Below the pieces are notes generated by a model. That model had not been told where the DNA came from, made no database searches, and saw nothing but the letters and a program-made list of their open reading frames with translations. Made by a program: the position numbers and the translations under genes. Positions 13,112-30,739 of a stretch of 64,000 nt of DNA are shown in pieces (positions within the stretch are counted from its first letter, which is position 1; every line of letters begins with the position of its first letter). Origin of the DNA: Sandaracinus sp. (lineage in GTDB: Bacteria; Myxococcota_A; Polyangia; Polyangiales; Houyiibacteriaceae); assembly GCA_020633125.1 (NCBI GenBank), contig JACKEH010000009.1, forward strand, positions 27,680 to 91,679. Reading direction: 5' to 3'.

Positions 13112-13198
13112 CGCGGTCGGGCCGATTCGAGCGCCAGTCGAATAGAGCGTGAGGCTGGGGCGTCCATGCCCCCGCACCGCGCACCTTCCGGAGCCACG

Positions 13199-13798
13199 AT
13201 GCGACGCACGATCCTCCTCTCCTTCGCCTTCGTCCTCTCGTTCACTGCCTTCGCCGCGGCCCAACCCGCCGACGCGCAGCGTTTCCTTCAAGAGCGCAAC
13301 ACCACGGTGATGCGGGTCATGGAGCGCCCCGCGAGCGAGGCGCGTGACGCCGAGCTCACCCGCATGCTCGGCGAGCTGCTCGATTACGAGGAGCTCTCGC
13401 GTCGCGCGCTCGCGCGTCATTGGGGCGAGCACTCCGAAGCCGAGCGCGCCGAGTTCGTCGGCATCCTCAAGCAGCTCGTCGAGCGCAGCTACCGCTCGAA
13501 CCTGCAGCGCACCCTTCGCTACGAGATTCGCTACGAGTCCTCCGAGGTGCAGGGCGAGGACGTGCTCGTGAAGACCGAGGCACGCAACCGCAGCAACCGC
13601 CGCGCTCCGGCGGTCTCGATCGACTACGTCGTCGCGCGTCGTGGTTCGGCGTGGCGCATCGTGGACATCACGGTCGACGACGGCATGTCCATGGTCGACA
13701 ACTACCGCAACCAGTTCGAGCGCATCTTGCGCCGCGAGGGTTGGGAAGGGTTGATGACGCGGATGCGCGGTCGCCTGACCGAAGAGTCGGCCACCTGA
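13199..13798 (+). CDS. MlaC/Ttg2D-family phospholipid-binding periplasmic protein
   Basis: Signal peptide MRRTILLSFAFVLSFTAFAAAQ. Family-typical LLDYEELSRRALARHWGEHSEAERAEFVGILKQLVERSYRSNL and WRIVDITVDDGMSMVDNYRNQFERIL. Confidence 0.8.
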   Translation: MRRTILLSFAFVLSFTAFAAAQPADAQRFLQERNTTVMRVMERPASEARDAELTRMLGELLDYEELSRRALARHWGEHSEAERAEFVGILKQLVERSYRSNLQRTLRYEIRYESSEVQGEDVLVKTEARNRSNRRAPAVSIDYVVARRGSAWRIVDITVDDGMSMVDNYRNQFERILRREGWEGLMTRMRGRLTEESAT

Positions 13799-13825
13799 GC
13801 CACCCGAGCCACCCGAGCCACCTGG
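13790..13825 (+). repeat. 9-bp tandem repeat x4 (GCCACCYGR) spanning the stop codon of the mlaC-like gene
   Basis: gccacctga gccacccga gccacccga gccacctgg. The first unit contains the TGA stop (13796-13798). Confidence 0.85.
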
Positions 13826-13831
13826 GCTTCG

Positions 13832-13866
13832 ACGCCGCCGACTCGTTCGGCGGCGTTTCTCGTTCC
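13832..13866 (+). terminator. intrinsic terminator after the mlaC-like gene
   Basis: ACGCCGCCG-actcgtt-CGGCGGCGT hairpin followed by TTCTCGTTCCGTCC. Confidence 0.65.
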
Positions 13867-13940
13867 GTCCTTCGCAAAGGGGGCGGCGGGCATGACGGGC
13901 TCTCGCCCTCCGCGATTCTTTTCACGAGTCGGGCGCTGGC

Positions 13941-14020
13941 GCGGGCACGAGCACAGGCGCGGGCACGGGTGCGAGCAGAGGCACGCGGGCACACAGGCGC
14001 GGGCACGGGTGCGAGCAGAG
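13941..14020 (+). repeat. direct duplication (29-bp core cacaggcgcgggcacgggtgcgagcagag, 40-bp period)
   Basis: Identical 29-mers at 13952-13980 and 13992-14020. Confidence 0.85.
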
Positions 14021-14068
14021 GGGCACGGGCACGGGCACGGGCACGGGCACGGGCACGGGCACGGGCAC
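14021..14068 (+). repeat. hexanucleotide microsatellite (GGGCAC)x8
   Basis: Eight perfect GGGCAC units, intergenic, 66 nt upstream of the ATG at 14135. Confidence 0.95.
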
Positions 14069-14134
14069 GCGCGCTGTGTGAGCGCAGGTCGCACCCTTGC
14101 GTGGCTGGGCGATCCGGTTTAAAGCCGCCCCCGC

Positions 14135-14647
14135 ATGCGCCTCTACAGCGGAAAAGTCCCCGTCATCGCGGAAGATCTCCTTCGCGTCCTCACGGCCGAC
14201 GGCGACATCGAGGTCGAGAGCGCCGACGAGGTCCGCATGGACTTCGAGTCGGTCCTGAAGGAGTTCGTTCGTCGCGAGCGCCAGGTCACCGACGAAGCGA
14301 AGAACCAGATGGAGCGCGCGGGTCTGAGCTACTCGATGCTCGGCAAGATCAAGTCCCAGGTCGCCAAGGACATGGGCTTCCCCGAGCCGGACGAGCAGCT
14401 TCCCTACCTCGTCTCGCAGCTCCTCACGATGCTCTTCCACAGCAACAACGTCGCCGAGGTCTTCTCGGAGGACATGGACCTTCGCAAGAAGATCACGACC
14501 GTCCTTCGCAACCACACCTCGTCGGGCAACGAGCTCGACCGCGAGGTCCGTTCGAAGATCAAGAACCTGCAGGAAGGCACCGCGGCGTTCGAGATCGAGT
14601 ACGAGCGCGTCATGTCGCAGCTGAAGGCGCGCAAGGGCCTCACCTGA
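14135..14647 (+). CDS. DUF507-like conserved hypothetical protein
   Basis: 170-aa ORF starting MRLYSGKVPVIAEDLLRVLTADGDIEV..., charged and helical. It resembles the DUF507 family as I recall it from delta-proteobacteria. Normal, non-shadow amino-acid composition. Confidence 0.65.
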   Translation: MRLYSGKVPVIAEDLLRVLTADGDIEVESADEVRMDFESVLKEFVRRERQVTDEAKNQMERAGLSYSMLGKIKSQVAKDMGFPEPDEQLPYLVSQLLTMLFHSNNVAEVFSEDMDLRKKITTVLRNHTSSGNELDREVRSKIKNLQEGTAAFEIEYERVMSQLKARKGLT

Positions 14648-14670
14648 GCGCCTCGCGACACCCGAATGCG

Positions 14671-14700
14671 AAGAGCCCCGACCGTCTGGCCGGGGCTCTT
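14671..14700. terminator. hairpin between convergent genes (possible bidirectional terminator)
   Basis: AAGAGCCCCG-accgtctggc-CGGGGCTCTT, a perfect 10-bp stem with weak T-tracts on both strands. It is followed by a 15-bp direct repeat gctctttcgatcc(gt) x2. Confidence 0.5.
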
Positions 14701-14752
14701 TCGATCCGTGCTCTTTCGATCCCTGCTCTCTCGAGCTCGTCTTCGTTCGAGC

Positions 14753-15463
14753 TCAGGACTCGAGGCGAATCGGCCGGAACCAGCGGAGCAGCAAGAAGAG
14801 GTCGAGCGCGACCGCGAGCGCGCAGAGCACCGCCAGCACCAGCGCCCAGACGTACGTGCCTGGCGCCTCGTCGGCGAGCAGCACGAAGGTCTCCGAGCTC
14901 ACGGGCACGTCCATGCGGTCGAAGGTCCGCTGCACGGCCGAGAAACGGGAGCCGAGGTCCCCGACCGTGACGAGGCGGCCCGAGAACTCCCGGCGCGCGG
15001 AGGCGCGGTTCTCGAACCCGTCGTCCGCCGGCACCTGCACCAGGATTCGGCGCTGTCCCGCCAGCGGGAAGACCGCGTAGCGATCGCCGAAGACCCGCTC
15101 GTAGGTCACCCGGGTGCTGGCCATCGGGGTGCCCTCGAGGGTCACGAAGCTGTTCGAAGCCAGCGAGGCCGGGTCCACGGTGATCGCTTCGCCCACGGGC
15201 TCCGGTCGGTCGGCCGCGAAGAAATACGAGACGTCCGCACGCAGGGTCAGCAGCATCCCGATGGCCAAGGCGGCGCAGGCGGCCATGAGCGTCAGAGTGG
15301 CGAGCCGAGGACCGCGTGCCGGCGCGGGCAGCGCCAAAAGCTCGGGATCGACGCCCGCGGCGGGGCCGGAAAGCAGGATCTCGTCGCGTTCCACGGTGGT
15401 CACGAGGGGCTTGGACAACGGGTCGCCCGCTTTGTTCGCGGGGTCGTGGGCGACATGGTGCAC
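14753..15463 (-). CDS. hypothetical membrane protein (N- and C-terminal TM helices)
   Basis: This is the C-terminal ~236 aa of ORF 14753..16150. TM helix LATLTLMAACAALAIGMLLTL, a soluble beta-rich middle and the TM helix YVWALVLAVLCALAVALDLFLLL. Start guessed at GTG 15463 (alternative GTG 15481). The upstream part of the ORF collides with the plus-strand gene 15668..16030. Confidence 0.5.
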   Translation of the reverse strand: MHHVAHDPANKAGDPLSKPLVTTVERDEILLSGPAAGVDPELLALPAPARGPRLATLTLMAACAALAIGMLLTLRADVSYFFAADRPEPVGEAITVDPASLASNSFVTLEGTPMASTRVTYERVFGDRYAVFPLAGQRRILVQVPADDGFENRASARREFSGRLVTVGDLGSRFSAVQRTFDRMDVPVSSETFVLLADEAPGTYVWALVLAVLCALAVALDLFLLLRWFRPIRLES

Positions 15464-15582
15464 CGAGGTGGTTTCGCCCACAATCCCGGCGTCCACCGGG
15501 GCTTCGTTGCATCCCCGGCGGGCCCCTGCTAGACCGCGCGCCCCGCGAGACGACGCCGAAGGGCGCCTCGCACACGGATCAC

Positions 15583-15650
15583 GGTGGGAGATTCCCACCC
15601 GAAGACGGTGGGAATCACCCCACCCGGAAGACGTGGTGGGTATTCCCACC
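15583..15650 (+). promoter_or_regulatory. three tandem inverted repeats GGTGGGA-N-TCCCACC in a divergent intergenic region (candidate operator or 5'-UTR hairpins)
   Basis: GGTGGGAGATTCCCACC (15583-15599), GGTGGGAATCACCCCACC (15607-15624) and GGTGGGTATTCCCACC (15635-15650). The last two are preceded by GAAGACG. The array ends 18 nt before ATG 15668. Confidence 0.45.
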
Positions 15651-15667
15651 GATTGGAGCCAAGAACC

Positions 15668-16030
15668 ATGAAGCTCTCGCCCCTCCAGGCCGCCAAGAAG
15701 CGTTTCGGCATCGAAGAGTCCAACCCCACCCTCGCCCGCAAGGCGGTCAAGGAGAAGCTGGTCGACGCCGTCCAGAAGCTCACCGACGACGGCCTCTGGA
15801 TCGACCGCGTCAACGGGGACAAGGGCCTCTCGAGCGTCTCGAACCGCAAGCTCCTCCACCTCCTCGAGGTGCTCGAGGCGGTTCAGAAGCACGGCGGCCG
15901 CGCCAAGGTGATCGCGGACGTGGTCAGCCTCGAGGGCCGCAAGGACGAGACCTACGCGTCGCGCTTCGAGAAGTTCTCGACGCCGCGCCTCTGGGACGCG
16001 TACCGCACCGCGAAGAAGCGCGCGAACTGA
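15668..16030 (+). CDS. small basic hypothetical protein (120 aa)
   Basis: GGAG lies about 10 nt upstream of ATG 15668. MKLSPLQAAKKRFGIEESNPTLARKAVKEKLVDAVQKL... is Lys-rich with normal composition, unlike the overlapping shadow ORFs. No family recognised. Confidence 0.6.
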   Translation: MKLSPLQAAKKRFGIEESNPTLARKAVKEKLVDAVQKLTDDGLWIDRVNGDKGLSSVSNRKLLHLLEVLEAVQKHGGRAKVIADVVSLEGRKDETYASRFEKFSTPRLWDAYRTAKKRAN

Positions 16031-16185
16031 TCGCGTTCGCGCGAACGGATCACGCGTTCGCACGACCCGAGCGGGCCCTCCTCTGGAGCGGCCCGCTTTA
16101 TCGTGGGTGCCAGCGAGACGCCCCCACGAGCCGCCTGGCCCCCGCATCACGGTCCCCTTTCGCGACAGCCTGCTAGAACGTCCGC

Positions 16186-16857
16186 ATGCCGGGCGCGCCG
16201 CTCCTCGAGCTGCATCGCGTGGGGTTTCGGGCCGACGGGCGCGACATCCTCGCCGACGTCTCGCTCACGGTGCACGAAGGCGAGCTGCTCGGCGTGGTGC
16301 TGCAGCACGGCGCTGGCAAGTCGCTGCTCCTGTCGATCGCCGGCGGGCTCGTTCGGCCCACGCACGGCGAGGTCGTGTACCGTGGTCGTCGCATCACCGA
16401 GCTCGCGAGCAGCCCGCCGAAGCTCGGCTTCGTGTTCGAAGACGACGGTGGCCTGCTCGCCAACCTCTCGGTGTACGAGAACGTCGCGCTGCCGCTTCGC
16501 TACCACTTCGGTCTCGAAGGCGACGCGCTCGACGCGAAGGTCCGTGAAGCGCTCGGCCTCGTCGGGCTGGAGGACGCCGCGACCCACATGCCGTGGCAGC
16601 TCACCGGGGACCGACAGCGCCTCGCCGCGCTCGCCCGCGCCATCGCCTACGAGCCGGAGCTGATCTTCGTCGACGACTTCTACGTGAACGCCGACCAGGA
16701 CGCGTTTCGACGGATGCAGGAGTCCGTCGCGATCATGCGCGAAGCCCACGGCACGGCGTTCCTCCTGGCGGTCGACGGCAGCGGTGAATTCGGCATCACG
16801 GATCGGCTCTGCTTGGTCGATCACGGCACGGTGCTGGAGCTCGAACGGCCGGCGTGA
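16186..16857 (+). CDS. ABC-ATPase-like protein with degenerate catalytic motifs (MlaF-like fold)
   Basis: Overall ABC NBD layout, but Walker A is LQHGAGKS and the Q-loop is VFE. The signature is LTGDRQ instead of LSGGQ, and Walker B/D-loop is IFVDDFYVNAD instead of hhhhDEPxxGLD. There is no H-switch His (LLAVDG). Confidence 0.75.
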   Translation: MPGAPLLELHRVGFRADGRDILADVSLTVHEGELLGVVLQHGAGKSLLLSIAGGLVRPTHGEVVYRGRRITELASSPPKLGFVFEDDGGLLANLSVYENVALPLRYHFGLEGDALDAKVREALGLVGLEDAATHMPWQLTGDRQRLAALARAIAYEPELIFVDDFYVNADQDAFRRMQESVAIMREAHGTAFLLAVDGSGEFGITDRLCLVDHGTVLELERPA

Positions 16858-16917: not shown

Positions 16918-19900
16918 GTGCGTCTTTCGCCCGAGGGACTGCTACCCTCGCGCGCCGTGACGCTCGCGATCGACACCCTCGCGGTCCTCGACGAGCTGCC
17001 CGACGGGACCTGCGTCGCCTATCCGGTAGTCGAGCCGCAGCACGTCGCGGTCGGCAGCGAAGGGGACGTCTTGGCCGAGCTTCGGCTCTTCCTGGCGGAC
17101 GAGCTCGCCAGCGCGCCGCCGCACCGCATCGCGCGCTATGCGCTCCCCGAGTCGGCGGCCGCCCAGACGATGGAGATTCGGCTGCCGGAGCTCGAGCTGC
17201 CGGAGCGAATGCGCGCCGACGCCAGCGTGCCGATGACCGCCATCGTCATCCCACACGAGGGCGCGTCTTGGGTGCTGGTGCCGGCGCTCCGTCACGTCGT
17301 CTACGTGTCGAAGGGCGAAGCGCTCGAGTCGACCGCGATTCACGAGATCGAGCGGCACCTCCGCGCGCACGCCCCCAACGCCGCCGAGCGACTCGCGTTG
17401 CTTCCCCCGGCGGACACGCGCGTCGTCCCGCTGCGTCTGCTCGTCGACCGCGAAGGCGAAGCCGCACGGGGGGTCGCGCGTCAGAAGGAGCTCCTCGAAG
17501 CGCGGCGCCGCAAGGAAGCGCTCGCGGTGCTCGAGAGCGTGGGCACGCCGCTTCATGCGCTCCCGGACGGTCCGCCCGTCGTCGGACGCGAGGACGTCGT
17601 GCAGACCATGCACGGCCTGCTCGGCGGACGGGAACGACGCAGCGTCTTGCTCGTCGGCCCCGAACGCGTCGGCAAATCCGACGTGCTTCGCGCGTGGCTG
17701 CGCGGCCCGGGGCGCGGTCGCCGCGCGTTCGCGACGAGCGGCGCGCAGCTGATGGCGGGCATGAGCGGGCTCGGCCAATGGCAGGAGCGCCTGCGGCGCG
17801 TCGTGGCCGCGGCCGAAGAGCTCGACGCGCTCTTGGTCTTCTCGGATCTCACCGACCTCTTCGACCAGACCGGCAAAGGCAACGTCGACCTCCCGGCAGC
17901 GCTCAAGCCGGCGCTCGAAGAGGGCCGCGTGCGGGTGGTCGGCGAGCTCACGGAGGCCGCGGCCGATCGATTGCTCGGGCGGCACGAAGGCTTCTTTCAG
18001 AGCTTCCAGACCGTGCTCGTGCCCACGACCGATCGCAAACATGGACGTCGGCTGCTCGAAGCACGCGCGGCCCATGCGGTCGAGCAAGGGCGCCCCACGG
18101 TCGACGAGGGCGCGCTCGACGCGATGCTCGCGCTCGCCGAGCGCTACCTCGCGTACCGCGTGTTCCCAGGAAAAGCCGCGGAGCTCTTCGACGACGTGGT
18201 CGCCGCGTTCGAGCGGCCGGGCGTCGCGGCCGTCGATCTCGACGTCGTGCGTGCGTCCGACGTCTTTCGGCACTTCGCGACGACCAGCGGCATCCCCGAG
18301 GCGCTCTTGCGCGACGACCGCGCGCTCGAGCCCGATCGGCTTCGTGCGCGCTTCGAAGCGCGCATGGTCGGCCAACACGCCGCGGTCAGTGCCGTCGTCG
18401 ACACGCTCTGCGTGGTGAAGGCCGCGCTCGCGCCCGGCGACAAACCGCTCGCGACGTTCCTCTTCGCAGGGCCGACCGGCGTCGGAAAGACGGAGCTCGC
18501 GCGCGCGTTGGCGGAGATTCTCTACGGCGCCGACGACCGCCTCGTGCGCTTCGACATGAGCGAGTACGCGGACGCGTGGTCGGCGCGACGTCTGGTCGAC
18601 GGTGACGACGGCGGCGACGGCCTGCTCACGCGAAAGGTTCGCGAGCAGCCCTTCTCCGTGATCTTGCTCGACGAGATCGAGAAGGCGCATCCCTCCGTCT
18701 TCGACTTGCTGCTGCAGGTGACCGGCGAGGGACGACTGACCGACGGTCGAGGCCGCACCGCGCACTTCCACAACGCGATCCTGATCCTCACGAGCAACCT
18801 CGGCGCTTCGCACGGCGCACGCACGCTGGGCATCGACGCGCGCGCTTCCGCGGACGATCCGATGGACGCGATTCGAAAGCATTTTCGACCCGAGCTCGTC
18901 GGTCGCCTCGACCGCGTGATTCCTTTCCTCGCGCTCGGGCCCGAAGAGATCGCGCACGTCACGCGGCTCACCGTCGAGCGCGTCGTGCAACGTCGTGGGC
19001 TTCGCGATCGCGGCGTGGCGCTCGAAGTGAGCGAAGACGCGCTTCGGGTGCTGGCGACGGGCGGCTACGACGCCGTGTACGGCGCACGCGCGCTGCGACG
19101 CCACGTCGAGAGCGCGCTCGTCTCGCCGCTGGGCGACCTGCTCTCGTCGGTCGGTCGAGTCGCCGCGGGTAGCACCGTCTTCGTGCGCAGCGAAGACGCA
19201 TCACCGGCCGAGGGCGCACGTTTTCAGCGTGCGTCGCACGGACTGGTGCTCGAGCTCGTCGTGGGCGAGACCAAGGTCGCGCGTGCCGACCTTCGGGGCC
19301 TGGGCGACGCGACCACGTTGCGACGGGACCTCGCGAAGTGGATGGCGACGCCTGCGGTCGAACAGGTCGCCGAGGAAGTTCGCTCGACGCTGGTGCAACT
19401 CGCGATGCCGCGCTCGAAGGCGGAGCTCGCACGGGCCGGCGCCGAGCTCGCGCACCTTCAACGCGAGCTGCACCGCATGGGCAAACCCTGGGAGGAGCTG
19501 CAGCGACGCCAGAACGAGGTGCTCGAGCTCGAAGAGCTCTGCTTCGCGGCGTGGCTCGAAGGGGACACGGACGGAACGCTCGCCTCGTGGGCGGAGGAGC
19601 TTCCGGAGCTCCGTCACCGCGTGCGCATGGCGCTGCTCGCGACCTTGGTCGAGCGCACGCCGCGGCACGCGATCACGGTGCTCTGCGAAGAGCTCGACGA
19701 AGGCCGCTCGCTCGACGGATGGCTCGGGCCGCTGCTCGGCGATCTCGGGCGCCGCGGTTGGAGCGCGACCTTTCATCTTCACAAAGACTCGACCCCTTCG
19801 GGCGAGCCTTGGCCGACCGACCGTTCCTTCGGCCCGCCGCGTGACGCCGACTGGATGAAGGCGTGGCTCGCGCGGCCGGTGCGAGACCGCGCCATCGTGC

Positions 19901-20304
19901 TCGCGCGCATTCGCGGGCCCCACGCGGGGACGCTCGTGACGCTCGAGACCGGGTTGCACCGCTACCTCGGCGTGGCGCCGCGCACGAGCGGTTCGCATCA
20001 CCGCATCACGCTCCTCGCGCTGCGCGACACGATTCGCGAGGGCGAGTGGAAACATGCCGCGCTCCAACCCGGCGCACCTCCCGCACCCGACAAGGCGTTG
20101 AAGCAGCAATGCCGACGTTGGACGGATGAGCGTCCTGGCCAGAAGCTGCCGCCCGACTACATCCCGGTGCCGCTGACGGACTATTGGCTGCCGCACAGCT
20201 ACGACGAGCTTGCGCTTCGCGAGCTGCTCGCCTCGGAAGACCCGGACGTGTTGTTCACGGGCGCCGCGTTCGGCGACGAGGAGGATGAGGAGGACGAGCG
20301 ATGA
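16918..20304 (+). CDS. ClpA/ClpC-like double-AAA+ ATPase, paralogue 1 (novel N-terminal module, decayed D1, intact D2, release-factor-like C-terminal domain)
   Basis: GTG start preceded by AGGAGG. D1: LLVGPERVGKSDV with FSDL at the Walker B position. D2: FLFAGPTGVGKTELARAL, SVILLDEIEKAHPSVFDLLLQV, ILTSNLGA and YGARALRR. About 350 aa lie C-terminal of D2. Confidence 0.85.
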   Translation: MRLSPEGLLPSRAVTLAIDTLAVLDELPDGTCVAYPVVEPQHVAVGSEGDVLAELRLFLADELASAPPHRIARYALPESAAAQTMEIRLPELELPERMRADASVPMTAIVIPHEGASWVLVPALRHVVYVSKGEALESTAIHEIERHLRAHAPNAAERLALLPPADTRVVPLRLLVDREGEAARGVARQKELLEARRRKEALAVLESVGTPLHALPDGPPVVGREDVVQTMHGLLGGRERRSVLLVGPERVGKSDVLRAWLRGPGRGRRAFATSGAQLMAGMSGLGQWQERLRRVVAAAEELDALLVFSDLTDLFDQTGKGNVDLPAALKPALEEGRVRVVGELTEAAADRLLGRHEGFFQSFQTVLVPTTDRKHGRRLLEARAAHAVEQGRPTVDEGALDAMLALAERYLAYRVFPGKAAELFDDVVAAFERPGVAAVDLDVVRASDVFRHFATTSGIPEALLRDDRALEPDRLRARFEARMVGQHAAVSAVVDTLCVVKAALAPGDKPLATFLFAGPTGVGKTELARALAEILYGADDRLVRFDMSEYADAWSARRLVDGDDGGDGLLTRKVREQPFSVILLDEIEKAHPSVFDLLLQVTGEGRLTDGRGRTAHFHNAILILTSNLGASHGARTLGIDARASADDPMDAIRKHFRPELVGRLDRVIPFLALGPEEIAHVTRLTVERVVQRRGLRDRGVALEVSEDALRVLATGGYDAVYGARALRRHVESALVSPLGDLLSSVGRVAAGSTVFVRSEDASPAEGARFQRASHGLVLELVVGETKVARADLRGLGDATTLRRDLAKWMATPAVEQVAEEVRSTLVQLAMPRSKAELARAGAELAHLQRELHRMGKPWEELQRRQNEVLELEELCFAAWLEGDTDGTLASWAEELPELRHRVRMALLATLVERTPRHAITVLCEELDEGRSLDGWLGPLLGDLGRRGWSATFHLHKDSTPSGEPWPTDRSFGPPRDADWMKAWLARPVRDRAIVLARIRGPHAGTLVTLETGLHRYLGVAPRTSGSHHRITLLALRDTIREGEWKHAALQPGAPPAPDKALKQQCRRWTDERPGQKLPPDYIPVPLTDYWLPHSYDELALRELLASEDPDVLFTGAAFGDEEDEEDER

Positions 20305-23300
20305 ACCTGCTCGTGCCGATCTTTCAACGCAAAGCCGCCGGCTACCTGCATTGGACGCCGCTCGCGGTCGGTCTGACGCTCGAGCCCAAACGTTTCGTGA
20401 GCGAGACGAAGCTTCGCGAGCACCTCGGCCGCGACCTCGAGTCCGCGCTCGTGAAGGCGCCCCCGAACGCGGTGACCACGCTCGGTTCCCCACGCAGCGT
20501 CTCTCTCGAACGGGTTCGTCTCGAGCTGAAGCTCGAAGGCTCCCACGGGCGCCGAAAGAAGACGGGCGTGTTCCCCGTGGTGCTCGACGCACGCCGACTC
20601 CCCGACCGACGCCGCCGCGTGCTCGCGTACCACCCGTTGCGGCAGAACGAGGTGATCGTCGTCGACGAAGAGAAGCCGCTCGCCGCACAGATCGGCGCGC
20701 TCTTCGGCCACACCTGGGGCGAGCTCGACGACGAGGCCCTGACCGCGCTCGAGCTGCAGGCGCGCGACGCGCTTCGCACGATCCCGGTGTCGGTTCGCCC
20801 GACCTCGGTGCTCGACCGTGCGGGCAAGAAGGAGAACCTCTTCGACGACCTCCGCACGGAGTCGGAGAAGGCGCGCCGCAAAGGCCGCGGCTCGCTCGCG
20901 GTCTTGCACGAGATCGGCATCGACCTCGGCGCACGTGCGGGTGGGATCGTCGGGGGCAACGAAGGCGCGGCGGCGGGCTTCGACGTCGGCCGTCCTCGCG
21001 AACCGCTTCGCACGCAGCTCCAACAGATGCTGGTGACGCCGAAGAAACGTTCGTTCGTGCTCCTCGGCGCGCCGGGCGCGGGCAAACGCACCGCGTTGCG
21101 ACGAGGGGTGCTCGATCTCGTCGAAGCCGAAGGCTACGCGACGCACCGCGACCTCGAGCGCACCACGCGCGTCTTCTCGATGGCGGGCAGCCGGCTCATC
21201 GCCGGCATGTCGCGGGTCGGCGAGTGGGAGGAGCGCGCGCTCGAGGTGGTGGCGGCGGGTCGCGGTCGTGGGCTCGTGCTCGTGGTCGAGGACCTTCACA
21301 CCTTCGGACGCGTCGGCCGCAGCCGCGACAGCGAGCGCTGCTTGGCGGACGTGTTGCGAGGTCCGGTCGAGCGCGGCGAGCTCGTGCTGACGGGCTCGTG
21401 CACGGCCGCGCAATGGACCCGGCTCGAAGAAGACGCGCCGGGCTTCGCGGCCCTCTTCGCCCGTATCCCGGTGCAAGCGGCCAGCGCGGACGAGACGCTG
21501 CGCATGTTGCTGCACGAGGGCCGCAAGCTCGAAGCCGAGCACACGGTGCATTTCGCGCCGACGGCCTACCGAACGATCCTCGAACAGTCGCAGGCGCTCT
21601 TTCCCGAGCGCGCCCTCCCCGGCAAGGCGCTCGACCTGCTTCGCGCCTTCGACGCGGGGAACGTGAGCAGCCAAGAGGTGCTCGAGCGACTGGTCACCAC
21701 CACGGGTCTGCCGGAAGAGCTCCTCGATCCGAGCGGGACGCTCTCGCTCGACGAGGTCGTCTCGGAGCTCGCGGACGAGGTCGTCGGCCAAGGCGACGCG
21801 GTGCGCAGCGTGGCGGAGCTCGCGCTTCGCATTCGCACCGGCCTCGTCGATCCGCGGCGCCCCTACGGCACGTTCCTCTTCACCGGACCGACGGGCACCG
21901 GCAAGACGCAGCTCGCCAAGACGCTCGCGCGTTACCTCTACGGCGACGACGACCGACTCGTTCGTTTCGACATGGGCGAGCTCTCGGGCCCCGACGCCGT
22001 GCCGCGACTCATCGGCCACCGCGGTCGGCCCCGCGGCATGCTCACCGAAGCGGTCCGTCAGCGGCCCTTCGCCGTGTTGCTCCTCGACGAGATCGAGAAG
22101 GCCCACCCCTCCGTCCTCTACCTGCTCCTGCAGCTCCTCGACGACGGGCGGCTCACCGACGCGGCCGGCGACCGCGTGAGCTTCTCGCATTGCGTCGTCA
22201 TCATGACCTCGAACCTCGGCGCGCGAACGCGTCCCGCGGTGGGCTTCGGCGCGCCGAGCGAGCAGAGCCGCATGGCCGAGGTCACACGCGCGGTGAAGGA
22301 CTTCTTTCCGCCCGAGCTCTTCAACCGCATCGACCGCGTGGTGCCCTTCTCGCCGCTGGACGCCGAGAGCGCACGTTCGATCGCGGTGCGTGAGCTCGAG
22401 GCGTTGCTCGGTCGTCGAGGGCTCACCGACCGCAACGTCTTCGTGCGCCCCCACGCCAGCGCCGTCGACCGTCTGGTCGCCGAAGCCTTCGACGAACGCG
22501 CCGGCGCGCGCAGCGTGCGCCGCTACCTCGAGACGCACGTCGCCTCGTTGCTCGCGGAGCACCTCGCCTCGACGGTGCGTCCGGAGCTCGAGGTGATTCA
22601 GCTCTTCGACCGCGCGGGTCGGTTCACGCTTTCGTCCGATGCGTTGCGCGAAGCCCCGCCGCTCGCGGGTGACTCCGCGCTGCGCCCGCTGCTCGACGTG
22701 TCGATGCAAGCGCTCGTCGAACGGATCCCGGACGCGCTCGCGGCCCTCGACGACGCGGTCGCGTCCGGAGCGCTCGACTCGCTCGGCACGCGGATTCGGG
22801 ACCACCTCGCGCGTGCGTCGGGATCGGTGGCGGACGCCGACGCGCTCTTCGATCTCGAGCGGCTTCGCGGGGAGGTCGAGCGCGCACGCGAGGCGCTCGA
22901 GGCCCTCGCGCATCGTGATCAACTCAGCGCGGAGGCCGAGCTCGAGCTCGCGACCGGTGCCTGGGGAACGCTCGCAGACCGCGACCGCGACGGCGCCAAA
23001 CGGCGCGTGCGCTTGCTCGACCGCCGCATGCTTCGTTCGGCCGCGATTCCCGTCGGAAAACGCGCGCTGCTGCAGTGGCACGCGACGGCGATGCACCTCG
23101 CGCGCGAGCTTCGCTCGGCCGAGCACGACCCGGCGCGTCATCGCGTGCAGGTCGAGCTCTTGCGTGTGGGCGTCGGGCGCGGCGCGAAGGCGCTCGGGCT
23201 CTTCGGCGCGTTGACGCGGCACTACGTCGAGCTCGGCCGCGAGCTCGTGGGACACGCGGCGTTGGTTCGTGGGGAGGTGCGTGAAGGCGACCTCGCCGGC

Positions 23301-23744
23301 CTGCTCGATCTGGGCCCCGAGATGGTGGTGCTCGAGCTCCACGGCATCGGCGTGCGTGGGCTCTTCGAGCGCGACGAGGGGTGCCACGTCTTCTCGCACG
23401 CGGATGGCAGCTCGGAGATCGTGCGCGTGCGTGTGCTCGACGCAGACCTGCCGCCCGACCGTCGCATCGCCACACACCTCGAAGCGCGTCTCGCGCTCGA
23501 AGCCGCGGTGGCCGGAACGGGCGCGCTTCCCGAGGACGCGCGAGGCGACGCACGCGGCCCCGACGCGCTCGCTCCCGTCGTGCGGCGCTACTACGGCGAC
23601 CTCGTCCGAGGTCACGGCGCGAGCACGGCCTTCACGGTCGAGGACCACCGCATGACGCACGTCGAAGCCGCCGAGGTGCGCGCGCTCGAAGAGCTGCTGG
23701 CGCCCTTCACTTGGCTGGCCATGGGCTGGCAGGAGGAGGCGTGA
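20301..23744 (+). CDS. ClpA/ClpC-like double-AAA+ ATPase, paralogue 2 (same architecture as paralogue 1)
   Basis: ATGA overlap with the upstream gene. D1: LLGAPGAGKRTAL with VVEDLH. D2: FLFTGPTGTGKTQLAKTL, AVLLLDEIEKAHPSVLYLLLQL, IMTSNLGA, a VGF loop and AGARSVRR. About 400 aa lie C-terminal of D2. Confidence 0.85.
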   Translation: MNLLVPIFQRKAAGYLHWTPLAVGLTLEPKRFVSETKLREHLGRDLESALVKAPPNAVTTLGSPRSVSLERVRLELKLEGSHGRRKKTGVFPVVLDARRLPDRRRRVLAYHPLRQNEVIVVDEEKPLAAQIGALFGHTWGELDDEALTALELQARDALRTIPVSVRPTSVLDRAGKKENLFDDLRTESEKARRKGRGSLAVLHEIGIDLGARAGGIVGGNEGAAAGFDVGRPREPLRTQLQQMLVTPKKRSFVLLGAPGAGKRTALRRGVLDLVEAEGYATHRDLERTTRVFSMAGSRLIAGMSRVGEWEERALEVVAAGRGRGLVLVVEDLHTFGRVGRSRDSERCLADVLRGPVERGELVLTGSCTAAQWTRLEEDAPGFAALFARIPVQAASADETLRMLLHEGRKLEAEHTVHFAPTAYRTILEQSQALFPERALPGKALDLLRAFDAGNVSSQEVLERLVTTTGLPEELLDPSGTLSLDEVVSELADEVVGQGDAVRSVAELALRIRTGLVDPRRPYGTFLFTGPTGTGKTQLAKTLARYLYGDDDRLVRFDMGELSGPDAVPRLIGHRGRPRGMLTEAVRQRPFAVLLLDEIEKAHPSVLYLLLQLLDDGRLTDAAGDRVSFSHCVVIMTSNLGARTRPAVGFGAPSEQSRMAEVTRAVKDFFPPELFNRIDRVVPFSPLDAESARSIAVRELEALLGRRGLTDRNVFVRPHASAVDRLVAEAFDERAGARSVRRYLETHVASLLAEHLASTVRPELEVIQLFDRAGRFTLSSDALREAPPLAGDSALRPLLDVSMQALVERIPDALAALDDAVASGALDSLGTRIRDHLARASGSVADADALFDLERLRGEVERAREALEALAHRDQLSAEAELELATGAWGTLADRDRDGAKRRVRLLDRRMLRSAAIPVGKRALLQWHATAMHLARELRSAEHDPARHRVQVELLRVGVGRGAKALGLFGALTRHYVELGRELVGHAALVRGEVREGDLAGLLDLGPEMVVLELHGIGVRGLFERDEGCHVFSHADGSSEIVRVRVLDADLPPDRRIATHLEARLALEAAVAGTGALPEDARGDARGPDALAPVVRRYYGDLVRGHGASTAFTVEDHRMTHVEAAEVRALEELLAPFTWLAMGWQEEA

Positions 23745-26014
23745 TGGCGCAGGCCGCACGAAGCTTCCGTGTCTATTTCGTCGCGCACGCCGACGGGAAA
23801 CACACCGGTCTGTTGGTTCGTCGCTATTCGAGCCTCTTCGATGGACCACCCCCGAGCGCCTACGGATCCGACGAAGCGTCGGTGCTGCGGCAGCTCGAGC
23901 TCGACCTGCGCCTCCGCCTCTCGCGAAACCCGGGAGAGCTCGACCGCTACCTGTGGTCGGAGGCGTTCGAGACGCGGACCGTCTCGCTCACCGTCAGCCC
24001 CGCGAGCGTGGTCGACAAGCAGCCCGTCATCGCCAAGCGCGAGATGCCGCTGCGACTCACGTACGCGTGGTGCAAGGCGCAAGATGGCTCGTACCGGGTG
24101 ATGCTGCCGCGCTTCGATTGGTGGCTGATCCTCGAAGACCTGCAGACCGCGAAGGGCGCGCTCGAGCACGCGATCTCCGGCGCGCTCCTCGGCGCCGAGC
24201 CGGCATGGCTCTACGATTTTCGACGGGAAGGCGAGGAGCACGTCGTGGCGTGGGAGCCCGCGCTCTTGCGTGAGGTGAAGGTCAGCGCCGACGCGCCGAA
24301 GGAGACCGACGAGCGGAAGGTGCTCGCGCAGGTCGCCGACGATTGGGTCGGGCGCGCGAGCAAAGGAAAGCTGCCGCGCCCGGTGGGGGAGCCGCGCGTG
24401 AAGTCGTCGTGGCTGCCGGCGATCTCGCAGGACCCGAGCCGTCCGCTTCGTTCCTTGCTCTTCGTCGGTGACTCGGGTGTCGGCAAGACGACCGAGGTGC
24501 GGCACGTCGCGCATGCGCTGCTCGCGCTCGGGCGCGAACGAAAGAACACCCGTTCCCCCGGCCTCTTCGCGACGAGCGCCGAGCGCCTGCTGGCCGGCAT
24601 GATCTACCTCGGCATGTGGCAAGAGCGGGTGCTCGCGCTCGTCGACGAGCTCTCGGGCGACCGCGACTTCCTCTACGTCGACCGGCTGCTGCCCCTGCTC
24701 GCGCCCCAAGCCGACGGCGCGTCGATCGCGAGCTTGCTCGGTGGCCCGATGGCCGAAGGCGAGATCACGCTCGTGGCCGAATGCACGCGCCAAGAGCTCG
24801 CCGAAGCGCGACGCCGCGACGCCGCCTTCGTCGATCATTTCGTGACGATTCCGATGCGCGAGCCGAGCCTCGCGGCGCTCCTGCCCAACCTTCGCGCCTT
24901 CGCCGACCGCGGAAAGAAGTCGCTGCATCCGCGCGCGATTCGGCGCGCGGCCGAGCTGCTCGCGACCTACCGACGAGACCGCAGCTTTCCCGGAAAGGCG
25001 TACCGATTCCTGGAAGCGCTCGAGGCCGACGACGCGACGCCCTCGACCGTGTACGCGCCCGATGTCGAAGCCGCGTTCGCGCGCACGACCGGGTTGCCGC
25101 TGGAGCTCGTGAGCGACGCGACGCCCGCGGGCGTGCAGACCGTGGCGGGCCGTCTTCGCGAAGGCGTGATCGGCCAAGACTCCGCATGCGAAGCGGCCGC
25201 GCGCGCCATCGCGCCCTTCAAGGCGGGTCTCGGCCCACCGGACCGGCCGCTGGCGGTCTTGCTCTTCGCGGGCCCCACCGGAGTCGGCAAGACGGAGCTC
25301 GCGAAGCGCATCGCGGGTTACCTCTTCGGCGACGACAAACGCATGGTCCGCGTCGACATGAGCGAGCTGTCGACGCCCGGCAGCGCGTCGCGCTTGGTGG
25401 CGACGGGGCGCGGCGTGCGAAGCCTCGCCGAGAGCGTTCGACGCGAGCCGCTCGCGGTCGTGCTCTTCGACGAGGTGGAGAAGGCACACCCGGAGGTCTT
25501 CGACCTCTTGCTCGGTGTGCTCGGCGAAGGTCGCATGACCGACGACTCCGGACGTTTCGTCGACTTCCGGATGACCTTCGTGATCATGACGTCGAACCTC
25601 GGCGCGCGAGACCGCGACCCCGTCGGCTTCGACGGCCGCACGAGCGACGCGGACTACCTGCGCGCGGTGCGCGAGGCGTTTCGACCCGAGCTCCTCGGGC
25701 GCATCGACCAGGTCGTTCCCTTTGCCTCCCTTCGACCGGATGCGGTCAGGCGCATCGTCGACTTGCAGCTCGCGGGCATCGCGAAGCGCGAAGGCTTCAC
25801 GCGACGCGGCATCGCGCTTCGGGTCAGCGAAGCGGCGCGTGATCGCCTGGCGGAGCTCGGCTACGAGCCGCGCTACGGCGCGCGTCCGCTCAAGCGCGTG
25901 CTCGAAGGTCGCGTGGTGACGCCGCTCGCGGCGAAGCTGGCGGCCGACCCCGCGCTCCGGCATCGCACGTTGCGGGTCGGCGCCGAGGGCGAGGACGCCG
26001 ACGTTCACGTCTGA
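23744..26014 (+). CDS. ClpA/ClpC-like double-AAA+ ATPase, paralogue 3 (no C-terminal extension)
   Basis: ATG 23744 overlaps the upstream TGA (gTGATG). D1: LLFVGDSGVGKTTEV with YVDRL. D2: LLFAGPTGVGKTELAKRI, AVVLFDEVEKAHPEVFDLLLGV, IMTSNLGA, a VGF loop and YGARPLKR. Confidence 0.85.
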   Translation: MAQAARSFRVYFVAHADGKHTGLLVRRYSSLFDGPPPSAYGSDEASVLRQLELDLRLRLSRNPGELDRYLWSEAFETRTVSLTVSPASVVDKQPVIAKREMPLRLTYAWCKAQDGSYRVMLPRFDWWLILEDLQTAKGALEHAISGALLGAEPAWLYDFRREGEEHVVAWEPALLREVKVSADAPKETDERKVLAQVADDWVGRASKGKLPRPVGEPRVKSSWLPAISQDPSRPLRSLLFVGDSGVGKTTEVRHVAHALLALGRERKNTRSPGLFATSAERLLAGMIYLGMWQERVLALVDELSGDRDFLYVDRLLPLLAPQADGASIASLLGGPMAEGEITLVAECTRQELAEARRRDAAFVDHFVTIPMREPSLAALLPNLRAFADRGKKSLHPRAIRRAAELLATYRRDRSFPGKAYRFLEALEADDATPSTVYAPDVEAAFARTTGLPLELVSDATPAGVQTVAGRLREGVIGQDSACEAAARAIAPFKAGLGPPDRPLAVLLFAGPTGVGKTELAKRIAGYLFGDDKRMVRVDMSELSTPGSASRLVATGRGVRSLAESVRREPLAVVLFDEVEKAHPEVFDLLLGVLGEGRMTDDSGRFVDFRMTFVIMTSNLGARDRDPVGFDGRTSDADYLRAVREAFRPELLGRIDQVVPFASLRPDAVRRIVDLQLAGIAKREGFTRRGIALRVSEAARDRLAELGYEPRYGARPLKRVLEGRVVTPLAAKLAADPALRHRTLRVGAEGEDADVHV

Positions 26015-26200: not shown

Positions 26201-29200
26201 TCACTGCACGCGAAGCGTCTGCTCCGGCGTGCGCGCCACGACCGATCCGCCCGCGTCTTCGAGCTCGGCGGGTGGCAAACGCACCGTGCCCGCCAGACGC
26301 GCCACGAGCGCCAACGTCAGGTCCGCTGCGCCGTCGCCGAGCGCCACGACGAGCTCGTCGTCTTCCATCCAGGCGGCCTCGACGCGTGGATGCGCGCGCA
26401 GGGGCTCCAGCAGCACGTCGATCCCGCTCGGAAGGACTTGGCGCAAGGTGCGCGGCCCTTCGCCGGGTAGCCGCAAGACCGCGTTCGTCGGCGCGCCCAC
26501 GGCGAGCTCGTCGGGCAGACGTCGCGTCATCGCGGCGTTCTCGTCTCGCGTCGCGCGCTCGTCCCACACGAGGTGCGAGAGCTCGACACGGGCCTCCTGC
26601 GGCCCCGACCAACGCACCTTCACGCGATGCGTACCGGGCGCGAGCGCGAGCTCCCGAGCGCGAAGCGCGAGCGCCGCGGCCCACAGGTCCTCGCTCGACA
26701 CTTCGATGCGCTCGACGACCTCGCCGTCCACCTCGACTTCGAGCGTTCCGTCGCCTTCCGGCACCGGCCGAAGGCGCGCGAGTGCCCGCAACGCGTGAGC
26801 CGTTCCGCGTCCGCCGTGCGCGCTATCCCAGCTGTTGCGAGTCGAGAGGAGAAAGCGCGCCGCCGACGGCGCGACACGCTCGAAGCGACGCGGCGCGACG
26901 TCCTCGAGGACCTCCAGCGCGACGTCCACCGCCGCGACGTGCCCGGCCCACGCGTCGAGCCATTGCGGCTCGAAGTGCGTGAGGTTTCGAAGGTCGACCA
27001 GCCGCTCCGCCGCGCGAGCGACGAGGTTTCGGTAGCTCGAGGCATCGAGCGCGTGAAGAAACGCCGTGCAGTGACCGAGCACGCGCGGGTCGGTTCCGGG
27101 TTGCTCGAGCTCGGCGGTGCAGAGCACCCGCCACGCGAGCATCGCCTCGTGCTGATCGCGGCGCGGGCGAACCTTCACGACCGCGTGCGCGGCTTGGGCG
27201 GCCAGCGCGCGACGCTCGAGCTCGCTCTGACCGCGCCACGCCGCCATCGACCGCACGTCGAGGAATCCGTGGTCGTCCGCGGCGGCGAGCACGTAGTCGC
27301 GCGCGGAGAGCACCGCGCTCTCGGGCACCATCGCGCCGATCGCGTTCAAGGCCGAGAGCGCCTCGAGCGCCATCACCGAGACGTAGGGATCGCTGCGCCG
27401 CCCCGCGTCACGGGCAAAGCGGTTTCCGACGCCACCGTCGGCGTTCTGCGCGCTCACGAGCGCGAGCGCGAGCCGATCGAGACGCACGCGCAACGCCGCG
27501 CGCGCACGCTCGTTCAGCTGCCCCGTTTGTTCCAGGTAGCGCCACACCGCCGCGGCGCCGAGCGCGCGATGGGCCGCGCTGGCCGGGCCATCCGTCTCAC
27601 CTTCGAACGCGTCCAAGCCTTGAAGCAAGGGCACGCCGTTCGGCAGCGTCACCTCGAGGCGCACCACCTCGTAGCGCTCGGACGACACCGTGACCTCCGT
27701 CTGCACGTCGCGACCTTCGCGCGAGGTGCCGAAGGCACGACGCACGCTCGGCTCGCCGCGCGGCCGAACACGCACCGCGCGGCGCTCGACGTCGACGAAG
27801 TCGTCGGCCCGCGCGCTCGCCTCGAACGACGCCTCGCCTGCACGACGTGCATGCACCGTGAAGGTCGTCGCGACGGCGCCGTTTGCCGGCAGGTCGAGCG
27901 TCGCGGCCTCGCCTTCGACCGCGAGCGCTTCGCTGCGAAGGTCCAGCCGCGCCCGCACCGGCGTGTCCCCGAGGTTGCGCGCGACGACCGGCACCTCGAC
28001 CACGTCGCCGACGCCGAGCGTGGCGGGCACCTCGGCGCGCACCTGCAGGCGCTGCCGCACTGGGATGGTGGCGCGGGCGGTCGCGATGCCGCCTTCGCGA
28101 TCGGAGGCCACCACGGTGAGCGTCTGTTCGGTCAGCGTGTCGGGCAGCTCGGCATGCAGCCGCAACGTGCCGTTCTCGGCCACGAGCGTCGGCTCCCAGA
28201 GGCTCGTCTCCGCGAAATCCGTTCGAAGGACGATCGTCGTCGGCGCCGCGCGCGGGGTGCTCGGGCGACGTCCTCGAAAGCCTCCTGCACCACGTCCGTA
28301 GCCCGAGCCGGTTCCGCCCCCCGCGCCGTGTCCGATGGTGCCGAGGTTGCCGAGGCCGATGGTCCCTTCGCCCGTGCCTCCACCGCCCATGCCCGTGCCC
28401 GTCAGGCCCAACCCACCGAAGCCGAAGTTTTCGCCGATCGAATCGCCCATGAGCGCACCGAGCGCTCCCATCGGGTCGTTGCCGAGCGCGGTGCCGCTTC
28501 CGTAGCCACCGCCTCGACGCCGCGGCGGCGGCGGTCGACGGCCGTCGTGGTAGCCGAAGTTCGGCGGCCATCCGATGTCGTAGCGCTCGACGCCCCACGT
28601 GCGCGCGACCACCGGCCACGTGAGGGTCTGCGCACCGGTGCTCGCCAGCACCTTTCGCTCCGCGTTGTAGAAACGATCCCGCGGCGCGCGCTCGAGCGGA
28701 TCGAGCAACGCGAGCACCGCGGAGTCGACCACGCTGGCACCGACGAGCGCTTCGCGTGCTTGCCCGTCGCGGACGACACGAACCTCCGCGTCGATTCGCT
28801 CGCCCGGCGCAGCGGATTCGGGCAACCCGCCGAGCGTCACTTCGAGGCGCTGGCCCGGTTGCACCACGAGGTTCTGTCCGTCCGTGAGCAATCCGACGTC
28901 GGCCCCGCGCCGCCCCACCGTGAAGAGCGTGAGCAACATCGAGCCCCAGCTCGTCGCGTTCACGGTCGCACGCGCCAGAGGTTCGTCCCCGCCGCGTTCG
29001 ACCGGCACGAGGAACGAGTCGACGATCGCGCCCGAGCTGTCGACCACGTCTGCGTGCACGACCTCTTCGTTCGGCACGACGTCGCGGGGGAAACGCACCA
29101 ACACTTCGAAGGGTTCGCCCTCCGCGATCACGGTGTGCTCGACGGACGAGCGCATCGGAAGCACGGCTCCTCGCGGCAGGTTCGCGCGCGCGACGTCCTC

Positions 29201-30667: not shown

Positions 30668-30739
30668 CCCGAACCTCCGTGGCTTCCCCCGACCTCGGCC
30701 GGAGCTCGAGGTTCCCACGAAAGCGGTCGGACCTGCAGC

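Follow-up and report, generated by a model that had tools for sequence, protein, structure and literature searches.

A release factor-like module without the GGQ domain at the C-terminus of Clp/Hsp100-type AAA+ proteins in Myxococcota

What is a module that resembles a class-I release factor (RF) doing at the end of an AAA+ motor protein? The question is raised by a 64,000-nucleotide stretch of DNA from Sandaracinus sp. (assembly GCA_020633125.1, contig JACKEH010000009.1), in which three adjacent genes encode the Clp/Hsp100-type paralogues P1, P2 and P3. We refer to the whole stretch as the window, and all coordinates are positions on its forward strand. An earlier note on this DNA had proposed, from an alignment made by eye with the RF2 encoded in the same window, that the C-terminal regions of P1 and P2 resemble the decoding superdomain of class-I RFs but lack GGQ. 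Both proteins continue for ~370 residues past the D2-small lid, and the quoted peptides lie where they had been placed, at P1 residues 915-1040 (19660-20037) and P2 residues 946-1048 (~23136-23444). We find that the P1 extension is, with high probability, a descendant of a bacterial class-I RF. It retains domain 1 and the codon-recognition core of alpha/beta type (domain 2), probably together with a remnant of domain 4, and is without the GGQ domain (domain 3).

Relationship of the P1 extension to release factors

Searches of Pfam and the PDB with the P1 and P2 extensions as single sequences gave no RF match, and neither P1 nor P2 of the window matched the Pfam PCRF profile (PF03462) at an expect value (E) of 10 or below. 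A BLASTP comparison of the P1 extension with the window RF2 yielded a single 28-residue match, IRGPHAGTLVTLETGLHRYLGV (24 bits, pairwise E 0.004), which is suggestive only, given the many other comparisons that a reader could make. Word-indexed homology searches with the P1 extension or its alignment returned just one or two matches. An exhaustive HMMER search returned 157 cluster representatives (50% identity) at E <= 1e-3, most of them 1100-1200 residues long, matching at the same C-terminal position and having the same architecture.

Two alignments were made from this family: A1, which holds 43 P1-type extensions taken from gene fragments covering the extension alone, and a larger P1-family alignment of 142 cluster representatives. 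When the A1 profile was searched against 177,635 PDB sequences it matched RF2 (E 0.0045, at RF2 residues 150-200) and RF1 (E 0.012), and 21 of the 30 PDB matches listed were RF1 or RF2. Seven of the 43 members had below-threshold matches to Pfam PCRF at profile positions 135-190, the best at E 2.3e-4 and 21.4 bits, compared with a cut-off of 24 bits. For profile-to-profile comparison with hhalign we used an RF2 profile of 107 sequences. The comparison gave P 5.5e-5 (probability 66%) for A1 and P 2.7e-5 (probability 74%) for the 142-sequence family, and reversed-RF controls gave P 0.18-0.31. The register places extension residues 84-260 with RF2 residues 31-179, and recovers the one that had been drawn by eye. 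Net charge fails to separate the P1-type module from real RFs. We take the family-level signal in these profiles to be real.

The predicted structure leads to the same family. For the P1 extension, AlphaFold2 run without templates on A1 gave a model with a mean predicted local distance difference test score (pLDDT) of 88.4 and a predicted template-modelling score of 0.85, with pLDDT values of 84-98 in the core; the single-sequence model had a pLDDT of 40. The model runs from a ~30-residue low-confidence linker through a helical bundle (extension residues 32-150, with helices at 32-48, 51-68, 73-78, 80-119 and 123-150) to a beta-alpha-beta unit (157-194) and an insert, and continues with three strands (232-273), a ~30-residue connection, a strand (304-309) and C-terminal helices. 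In a Foldseek search of the PDB with this model, ranks 1-39 were all class-I RFs (RF2, RF1 and mitochondrial mtRF1), with probabilities of 0.84-1.0 and 38 of the 39 at 0.89 or higher. The best match was 5mdw chain 7 (E 5.6e-6, probability 1.0), and the RF alignments span 256-272 columns, approximately the size of an RF minus domain 3. PrfH (PDB 9mor) was found at E 0.41 and probability 0.77. There was no competing fold: the non-RF PDB matches in the ranks just after the RFs all had probabilities of 0.15 or less, and a search of viral structures, made as a negative control, gave nothing at E <= 1e-3. For P1, the fold suspected in the earlier note is thus upheld by the Foldseek ranking as well as by the hhalign probabilities.

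In the model the helical bundle corresponds to RF domain 1 and the alpha/beta core to RF domain 2. By hhalign, extension residues 36-150 align with RF2 residues 3-98. The core is predicted to consist of a strand-helix-strand and three further strands and holds both of the segments quoted earlier. The likeness to the decoding superdomain stands for P1; as a description it was too narrow, because RF domain 1 (extension residues 32-150) aligns too. At the insertion point of the GGQ domain the model has only ~30 residues. The C-terminal elements of the model are helices at 280-284, 296-301 and 331-344 and a strand at 304-309, and by hhalign the last ~80 residues of the extension match neither RF domain 3 nor RF domain 4 at the sequence level. 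From topology and Foldseek alignment length only, the last strand and helices are possibly a remnant of domain 4. In the published description of RFs, domain 1 is named as the part that interacts with GTPases, and the RF-PH domain lies inserted within the codon-recognition domain (PMC6514570). As modelled, the P1 extension is the RF architecture minus the inserted hydrolase domain.

A short convergent motif might, in principle, have drawn the AlphaFold model to the RF fold where there is no common ancestry. The borderline sequence statistics (the PDB E of 0.0045, the PCRF matches under their cut-off and the hhalign probabilities of 66-74%) could be read in this way, and so could the template-modelling (TM) scores of the model to RFs, which are ~0.3. 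We ascribe these low TM-scores to a difference in how the domains pack against one another and to domain 3, whose ~95 residues the targets have and the model lacks. Chance also has to contend with the agreement of independent methods on the same family and register, with 39 consecutive top structural matches to RFs and nothing else above 0.15 just below them, with the flat reversed-profile controls and with a template-free model that is confident over its whole core; we consider such an origin very improbable. Because fold and sequence, by independent methods, converge on one family and one register, we are confident that the P1 extension has RF ancestry.

Elements kept, lost and gained

The residues that tie the P1 family to RFs are well conserved. 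Over the 142 representatives the signature GPHAGTLVTLETGLHR retains G239 in 99% of sequences, A242 in 88%, E249 in 89%, G251 in 99%, H253 in 75% and R254 in 76% (residue numbers such as G239 and R306 follow the P1-extension numbering), and the E-x-G-x-H motif singled out in the earlier note is accordingly conserved across the family. G243, L246, the core aromatics W174 and W187, and H192 are also kept in this alignment, and R306, which is R1067 of P1, is conserved in 96% of the P1 family.

The elements with which an RF acts are missing. No GGQ tripeptide occurs in P1, P2 or P3, and Pfam scans found no RF-1 domain (PF00472) in P1, P2 or the full-length relatives scanned, in agreement with the earlier statement that no GGQ domain follows either region. 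Among 152 relatives GGQ is found in eight, where it is sporadic and non-aligned. In the hhalign register, read over the 142-sequence columns, the GGxE helix tip is lost (RF GGTD is replaced by EGRS or LDxGRAL), and the SPF/PxT loop and the His that follows it give way to a variable-length loop, rich in Gly, Asp and Glu, after the HR motif. Since the GGQ motif and the RF-1 domain are lost, the module cannot hydrolyse peptidyl-tRNA; and the missing GGQ domain, the missing decoding motifs and the sub-threshold PCRF scores together mean that the modules are not release factors. Judging from these substitutions, the module very probably does not read stop codons. The term "stop-codon reader" therefore fits it as a statement of ancestry but not of activity.

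One element has been added. The WPxxRRWGPPR insert is left unaligned against RF2 by hhalign and is without counterpart in RFs, and its columns are conserved at 81% (P), 71% (R), 89% (W or F), 81% (G), 81% (P), 70% (P) and 67% (R). It may be a newly acquired functional loop.

P2 has the same organization in a more diverged form. BLASTP finds nothing between the P2 extension and the window RF2, and neither BLASTP nor phmmer detects similarity between the P2 and P1 extensions. However, hhalign of a 12-sequence P2 family with the 142-sequence P1 family gives a probability of 93.3% (P 2.6e-7) over 210 columns that cover the helical part and the core, with reversed controls at P 0.4-0.5. Compared directly with RF2, P2 aligns at equivalent positions with a weak score (P 0.0038, 62 columns), and its family profile has no RF match in the PDB or Pfam. 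The P2 core contains HRVQVELLRVGVGRG...LGLF and also HGIGVRGLFERDEGCHV...SEIVRVRV. In alignment A3, which comprises eight P2 sequences (the window and seven orthologues from related loci), G-x-H-V is invariant, the SE(I/V)VRV strand that follows is conserved throughout, and an acidic residue (D or E) stands two positions before the G in all eight. We conclude that P2 carries what appears to be a more diverged copy of the P1 module. Its descent from a class-I RF is probable, the tie being mainly transitive through P1; the likeness of P2 to RF asserted in the earlier note holds by way of that homology, and much less by direct comparison.

Some P1 orthologues carry a second element reminiscent of translation. 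Seven of the 43 A1 sequences, and the full-length proteins P0096 and P0009, end in a tail that resembles the Pfam Ribosomal_L12 C-terminal domain (CTD) profile at positions 8-37 of its 67, with a best score of 31 bits, above the 25.9-bit cut-off. These positions of the L7/L12 CTD are, we assume, the helical surface contacted by translational GTPases. The carriers include P0007, P0023, P0143, P0010 and P0017; the tail is ~30 residues long (for example, KIEAIKLYRDRTGSGLKEAKEYVD), and these residues give a match to the end of DUF6793 as well. P1 of the window is without it and ends in the acidic run DEEDEEDER. A further variant is P0040, a metagenomic sequence of 1741 residues, which has ~600 residues beyond the RF-like module with a weak match to a peptidyl-prolyl isomerase domain (Rotamase_2); it could be a real fusion, or an artefact of gene calling or assembly.

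The tail bears on the possibility that the module mimics an RF for the benefit of RF partners, binding RF3 or ArfA-like adaptors, such that the motor would act on those factors and not on the ribosome. The L12-like tail presumably corresponds to a GTPase-contacting surface, which speaks for this reading. At the top of the Foldseek ranking stand structures of RF2 with ArfA in which RF2 is in the compact state that precedes accommodation (5mdw, 5u9f and 6ost), although compact RF states may rank high merely because domain 3 is absent from the module. The module retains domain 1, the part of RFs that has been termed their GTPase-interacting domain (PMC6514570). Against this, the neighbourhood shows no conserved partner gene, and on balance we think this role improbable.

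The losses and the insert would be accommodated if the extension is an exapted scaffold, RF-derived but unrelated to the ribosome, that serves as a substrate- or partner-binding, oligomerization or regulatory domain of a specialized myxobacterial Clp-like machine. The WPxxRRWGPPR loop would then be the functional site. All of the codon-reading and decoding-centre motifs have been lost while the family-specific insert is among the best-conserved features, no translation genes are conserved beside the triad of P1, P2 and P3, and the RF-like residues that persist (G239, G251, E249, W174 and W187) could be purely structural. What such a scaffold leaves unexplained is that domains 1 and 2 are kept in an RF-like arrangement throughout the family, and twice, in P1 and in P2, and that the L7/L12-CTD-like tail recurs, which gives the polypeptide another element derived from translation. 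We regard this reading, the chief alternative to ribosome targeting, as quite possible, without thinking it probable.

The AAA+ motors and their locus

The three paralogues are double AAA+ proteins with Pfam AAA_2 matches at E ~1e-41 to 1e-43 and a ClpB_D2-small domain in each. They score 290-340 bits against the NCBIfam ClpA and ClpB models and 225-241 bits against ClpV, far under the equivalog cut-offs of 885-1417 bits, and their best PDB sequence matches are ClpB, ClpC and ClpA. The ClpA model aligns in one stretch (residues 219-756), which indicates that there is no M-domain; the ClpB model aligns in two. Pfam found no Clp_N domain in P1, P2 or P3. The N-terminal domains, each conserved among orthologues, have no Pfam match, no PDB profile match and no detectable similarity to one another. 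By these measures the motors are members of the Clp/Hsp100 class that lie outside all of its named families. Membership in a defence system was considered and rejected, since PADLOC gives generic AAA+ D2 similarity only (DolB and PDC-M37B; 65-83 bits over ~150 residues).

In D2 the Walker A, Walker B (DEIEKAH), sensor 1 and GAR sensor 2 motifs are all intact in the paralogues and their orthologues. D1 retains its P-loop (GKS/T in P1, GKR in P2 and GKT in P3), and its Walker B glutamate is absent in all three paralogues, where the motif reads xDL or xDR. Judged by motif, D2 is the sole ATPase site with a complete catalytic set. The GYVG pore loop of ClpB-type D2 modules is shortened or replaced, by an acidic DGDDGGDG in P1, a basic GHRGRPRG in P2 and ATGRGVRS in P3, and P3 is the only paralogue in which the D1 pore loop always has an aromatic residue, Tyr or, in one orthologue, Phe. 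These paralogue-specific patterns are conserved among orthologues. Charged, non-aromatic pore loops could mean that the substrate is something other than an ordinary unfolded polypeptide; it might be RNA.

P1, P2 and P3 are three long head-to-tail open reading frames with a strong third-position GC bias (0.85 in P1) in a window of ~70% G+C (Table 1). The P1 stop overlaps the P2 start at 20301-20304 (ATGA), the P2 stop overlaps the P3 start at 23741-23746 (GTGATG), and an AGGAGG-type Shine-Dalgarno sequence precedes both the P2 and P3 starts, indicating that the three genes are translationally coupled. Their order is kept in 13 of 13 related loci, wherever the contig extends far enough. All eight genome loci among the 13 are from Myxococcota metagenome-assembled genomes, and the sample also holds metagenome loci; named cluster members are labelled Myxococcota or Polyangiaceae and annotated "AAA family ATPase" or "ClpC". 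As far as sampled, the three-gene unit is confined to Myxococcota, a range that is a lower bound because the searches for related loci used narrow alignments that yield close relatives. The flanks vary with lineage and include an Mla ABC transporter, alpha-2-macroglobulin, an MtnA-like protein of the IF-2B family and peptidase M19, among others. Because flanking genes differ between lineages, the conserved unit is the triad alone, and comparison of the related loci revealed no conserved neighbour hinting at function beyond the triad itself.

Table 1. Features of the P1-P2-P3 locus and the window RF2 gene
Feature	Position	Strand	Description	Basis
P1	16918-20304	+	1128 residues, Clp/Hsp100-type double AAA+	Pfam and NCBIfam scans
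P1 domains			N-domain 1-215; D1; D2 AAA_2 509-666; ClpB_D2-small 673-755; extension of probable RF origin 762-1128	
P2	20301-23744	+	Paralogue of 1147 residues; architecture as P1, with C-terminal extension	
P3	23741-26014	+	Third paralogue, 757 residues; ends at D2-small lid, without C-terminal extension	
N-terminal domains	16918-17562 (P1), 20301-20975 (P2), 23741-24385 (P3)	+	~215 residues each	
Pore-loop and D1 Walker B sites	17755-17790, 18550-18642, 21201-21236, 21966-22058, 24593-24628	+		
P1 C-terminal extension	19201-20301	+	367 residues; unit modelled and searched	
P1 helical bundle	19294-19650	+	Extension residues 32-150; predicted counterpart of RF domain 1	
P1 alpha/beta core	19654-20019	+	Extension residues 152-273; predicted counterpart of RF domain 2 (PCRF core)	
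WPxxRRWGPPR insert	19810-19842	+	P1 residues 965-975 (WPTDRSFGPPR in P1)	
Signature GPHAGTLVTLETGLHR	19915-19962	+	P1 residues 1000-1015	Matches RF2 in BLASTP
P1 linker and C-terminal part	20020-20301	+	Short linker at RF domain-3 site, strand with R1067, C-terminal helices, acidic tail	
P2 extension, part homologous to that of P1	22725-23444	+	Helical region, P2 residues 809-942; core, 943-1048	
prfB (RF2)	2093-3221	+	Intact GGQ; comparator of the earlier note, taken at 2106-3221	

Upstream of the triad, at 13166-16857 on the forward strand, are Mla-type lipid-transport genes (MlaC, a DUF507 protein, a 148-residue protein with no match and a 223-residue ABC ATPase). At a distant locus (L005, 4896-6339) a pair encoding MlaE and an ABC ATPase likewise stands upstream of the triad, which represents either lineage synteny or a weak association. 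Downstream, a 1505-residue alpha-2-macroglobulin-like gene with MG2 and A2M domains (26201-30718, reverse strand) is convergent to the triad; L002 and L010, the closest relatives, have this gene as well.

The window RF2 gene, which has 120 close homologues with both PF03462 and PF00472, contains the classical +1 programmed frameshift site TAT CTT TGA C (CTT TGA C at 2168-2174), preceded by GGGGAGG. Its "tripeptide anticodon" is SRF, where the canonical sequence is SPF, and it has RRETSF in place of RRHTSF; of 107 close Myxococcota RF2 homologues, 35 have the coupled variant (S[KR]F, D to S, A to G and H to E) and 71 have SPF. Within the window there is no stand-alone GGQ protein besides prfB that could supply the missing activity.

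Possible roles of the modules and comparison with known systems

Taking the evidence as a whole, we tentatively prefer the explanation that RF-derived modules act as ribosome-directed arms on the AAA+ triad. In this scheme P1, P2 and P3 would assemble into one mixed hexamer, as the coupling of their genes suggests. The catalytically dead RF modules would be targeting arms that dock the motor at the factor-binding site or the A site of the ribosome, or alternatively on a partner that normally recognizes RF domain 1 or 2. ATP hydrolysis driven by D2 might then remodel or disassemble a ribosomal complex.

That the modules direct the motor to ribosomes is, taken by itself, a serious possibility that we still hold to be doubtful. 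It is favoured because domains 1 and 2 are kept together, as in an RF, in two paralogues across the family, and because the L7/L12-CTD-like tail on some P1 orthologues scores above the Pfam cut-off at its best. It is favoured also because RF domain 1 is the GTPase-interacting domain (PMC6514570). Several observations weigh against our preferred explanation. The RF decoding-centre residues are unconserved, so that the ancestral mode of binding may be lost, and the neighbours of the triad are variable and none of them is translation-related. A hexamer with several arms of ~40 kDa may be sterically too bulky for the A site. The TM-scores to RFs are low, the sequence support for the domain-1 equivalence is weak by itself (P 0.03), and the domain-4 equivalence is without sequence-profile support. 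The most specific form of the ribosome-directed scheme holds that a mixed, D2-driven hexamer with dead RF mimics, in some lineages furnished with the L7/L12-like tail, would reach the A site or factor-binding site of stalled, damaged or hibernating ribosomes and split or strip them mechanically; we rate it as rather unlikely.

Comparison with known proteins shows how the modules depart from their relatives. As in RF1 and RF2, the P1 module has a helical N-terminal domain followed by an alpha/beta codon-recognition core, it shares G-x-x-A-x-x-L-x-x-E-x-G-x-H-R in the same register, and these RFs are its only significant structural neighbours. In contrast to them it is without domain 3 and its GGQ, the SPF/PxT loop and the GGxE tip, has the additional WPxxRRWGPPR insert, and scores below the PCRF threshold; RF1 and RF2 are free factors of ~360 residues, whereas the module is the C-terminus of an AAA+ protein of 1100 residues.

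PrfH, an RF homologue that works with RtcB on damaged ribosomes (PMC9304027, PMC12829566), is similarly a specialized RF derivative with a codon-recognition domain re-purposed away from stop-codon reading. It lacks domain 1 and keeps GGQ (PMC6514570), the opposite of the P1 module. ArfB/ICT1 and MRPS35 illustrate that RF domains are separable and reusable (PMC6514570), but they have the hydrolase domain alone, which is the complementary half of the P1 module. A 2019 survey of bacterial RF diversity reported no form with domain 1 and codon-recognition domain but without the hydrolase, and no AAA+ fusion (PMC6514570).

Among motors, the triad is most like the class-1 Clp/Hsp100 proteins (ClpA, ClpB, ClpC and ClpV), with two AAA+ modules, an AAA_2-type D2 and a ClpB_D2-small lid. 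It differs from them in lacking Clp_N, the M-domain, the D1 Walker B Glu and the D2 GYVG loop, and in having unique N-domains and, in P1 and P2, extensions of probable RF origin. A functional analogy, and no more than that, may be drawn with Vms1/ANKZF1 and Cdc48/p97, in which an AAA+ motor of two rings and a protein of the release-factor family are coupled at the ribosome (PMC6514570). Vms1, which is active in catalysis and has the eRF1 fold of archaea and eukaryotes, associates with Cdc48 without a covalent link, and it has no homology to the triad, where the RF module is of bacterial type, catalytically dead and fused to the motor. If ribosome splitting were true, the triad would be, in its logic, a bacterial fused counterpart of Vms1-Cdc48 or Pelota-ABCE1.

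We found no report, in the full-text searchable literature, of a fusion between an RF-like domain and an AAA+ protein, and the one described here is a new domain architecture and protein family. Annotation pipelines call these proteins "ClpC" or "AAA family ATPase" and overlook the domain derived from RF. Release factors are among the most constrained of bacterial proteins and, to our knowledge, the known RF derivatives (ArfB, PrfH and the mitochondrial versions) all retain the hydrolase domain. In the P1-P2-P3 family it is the non-catalytic, ribosome-recognizing half of an RF that appears to have been attached to a motor powered by ATP, twice within the operon and in at least 157 sequence clusters. 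If the modules do find ribosomes, the triad would be the first Clp-type machine in bacteria to be directed to ribosomes by mimicking a factor, and would offer a way to study how Myxococcota rescue or recycle their ribosomes or put them into hibernation. Should the modules not do so, the family would be a clear case of a translation-factor fold reused for another purpose.

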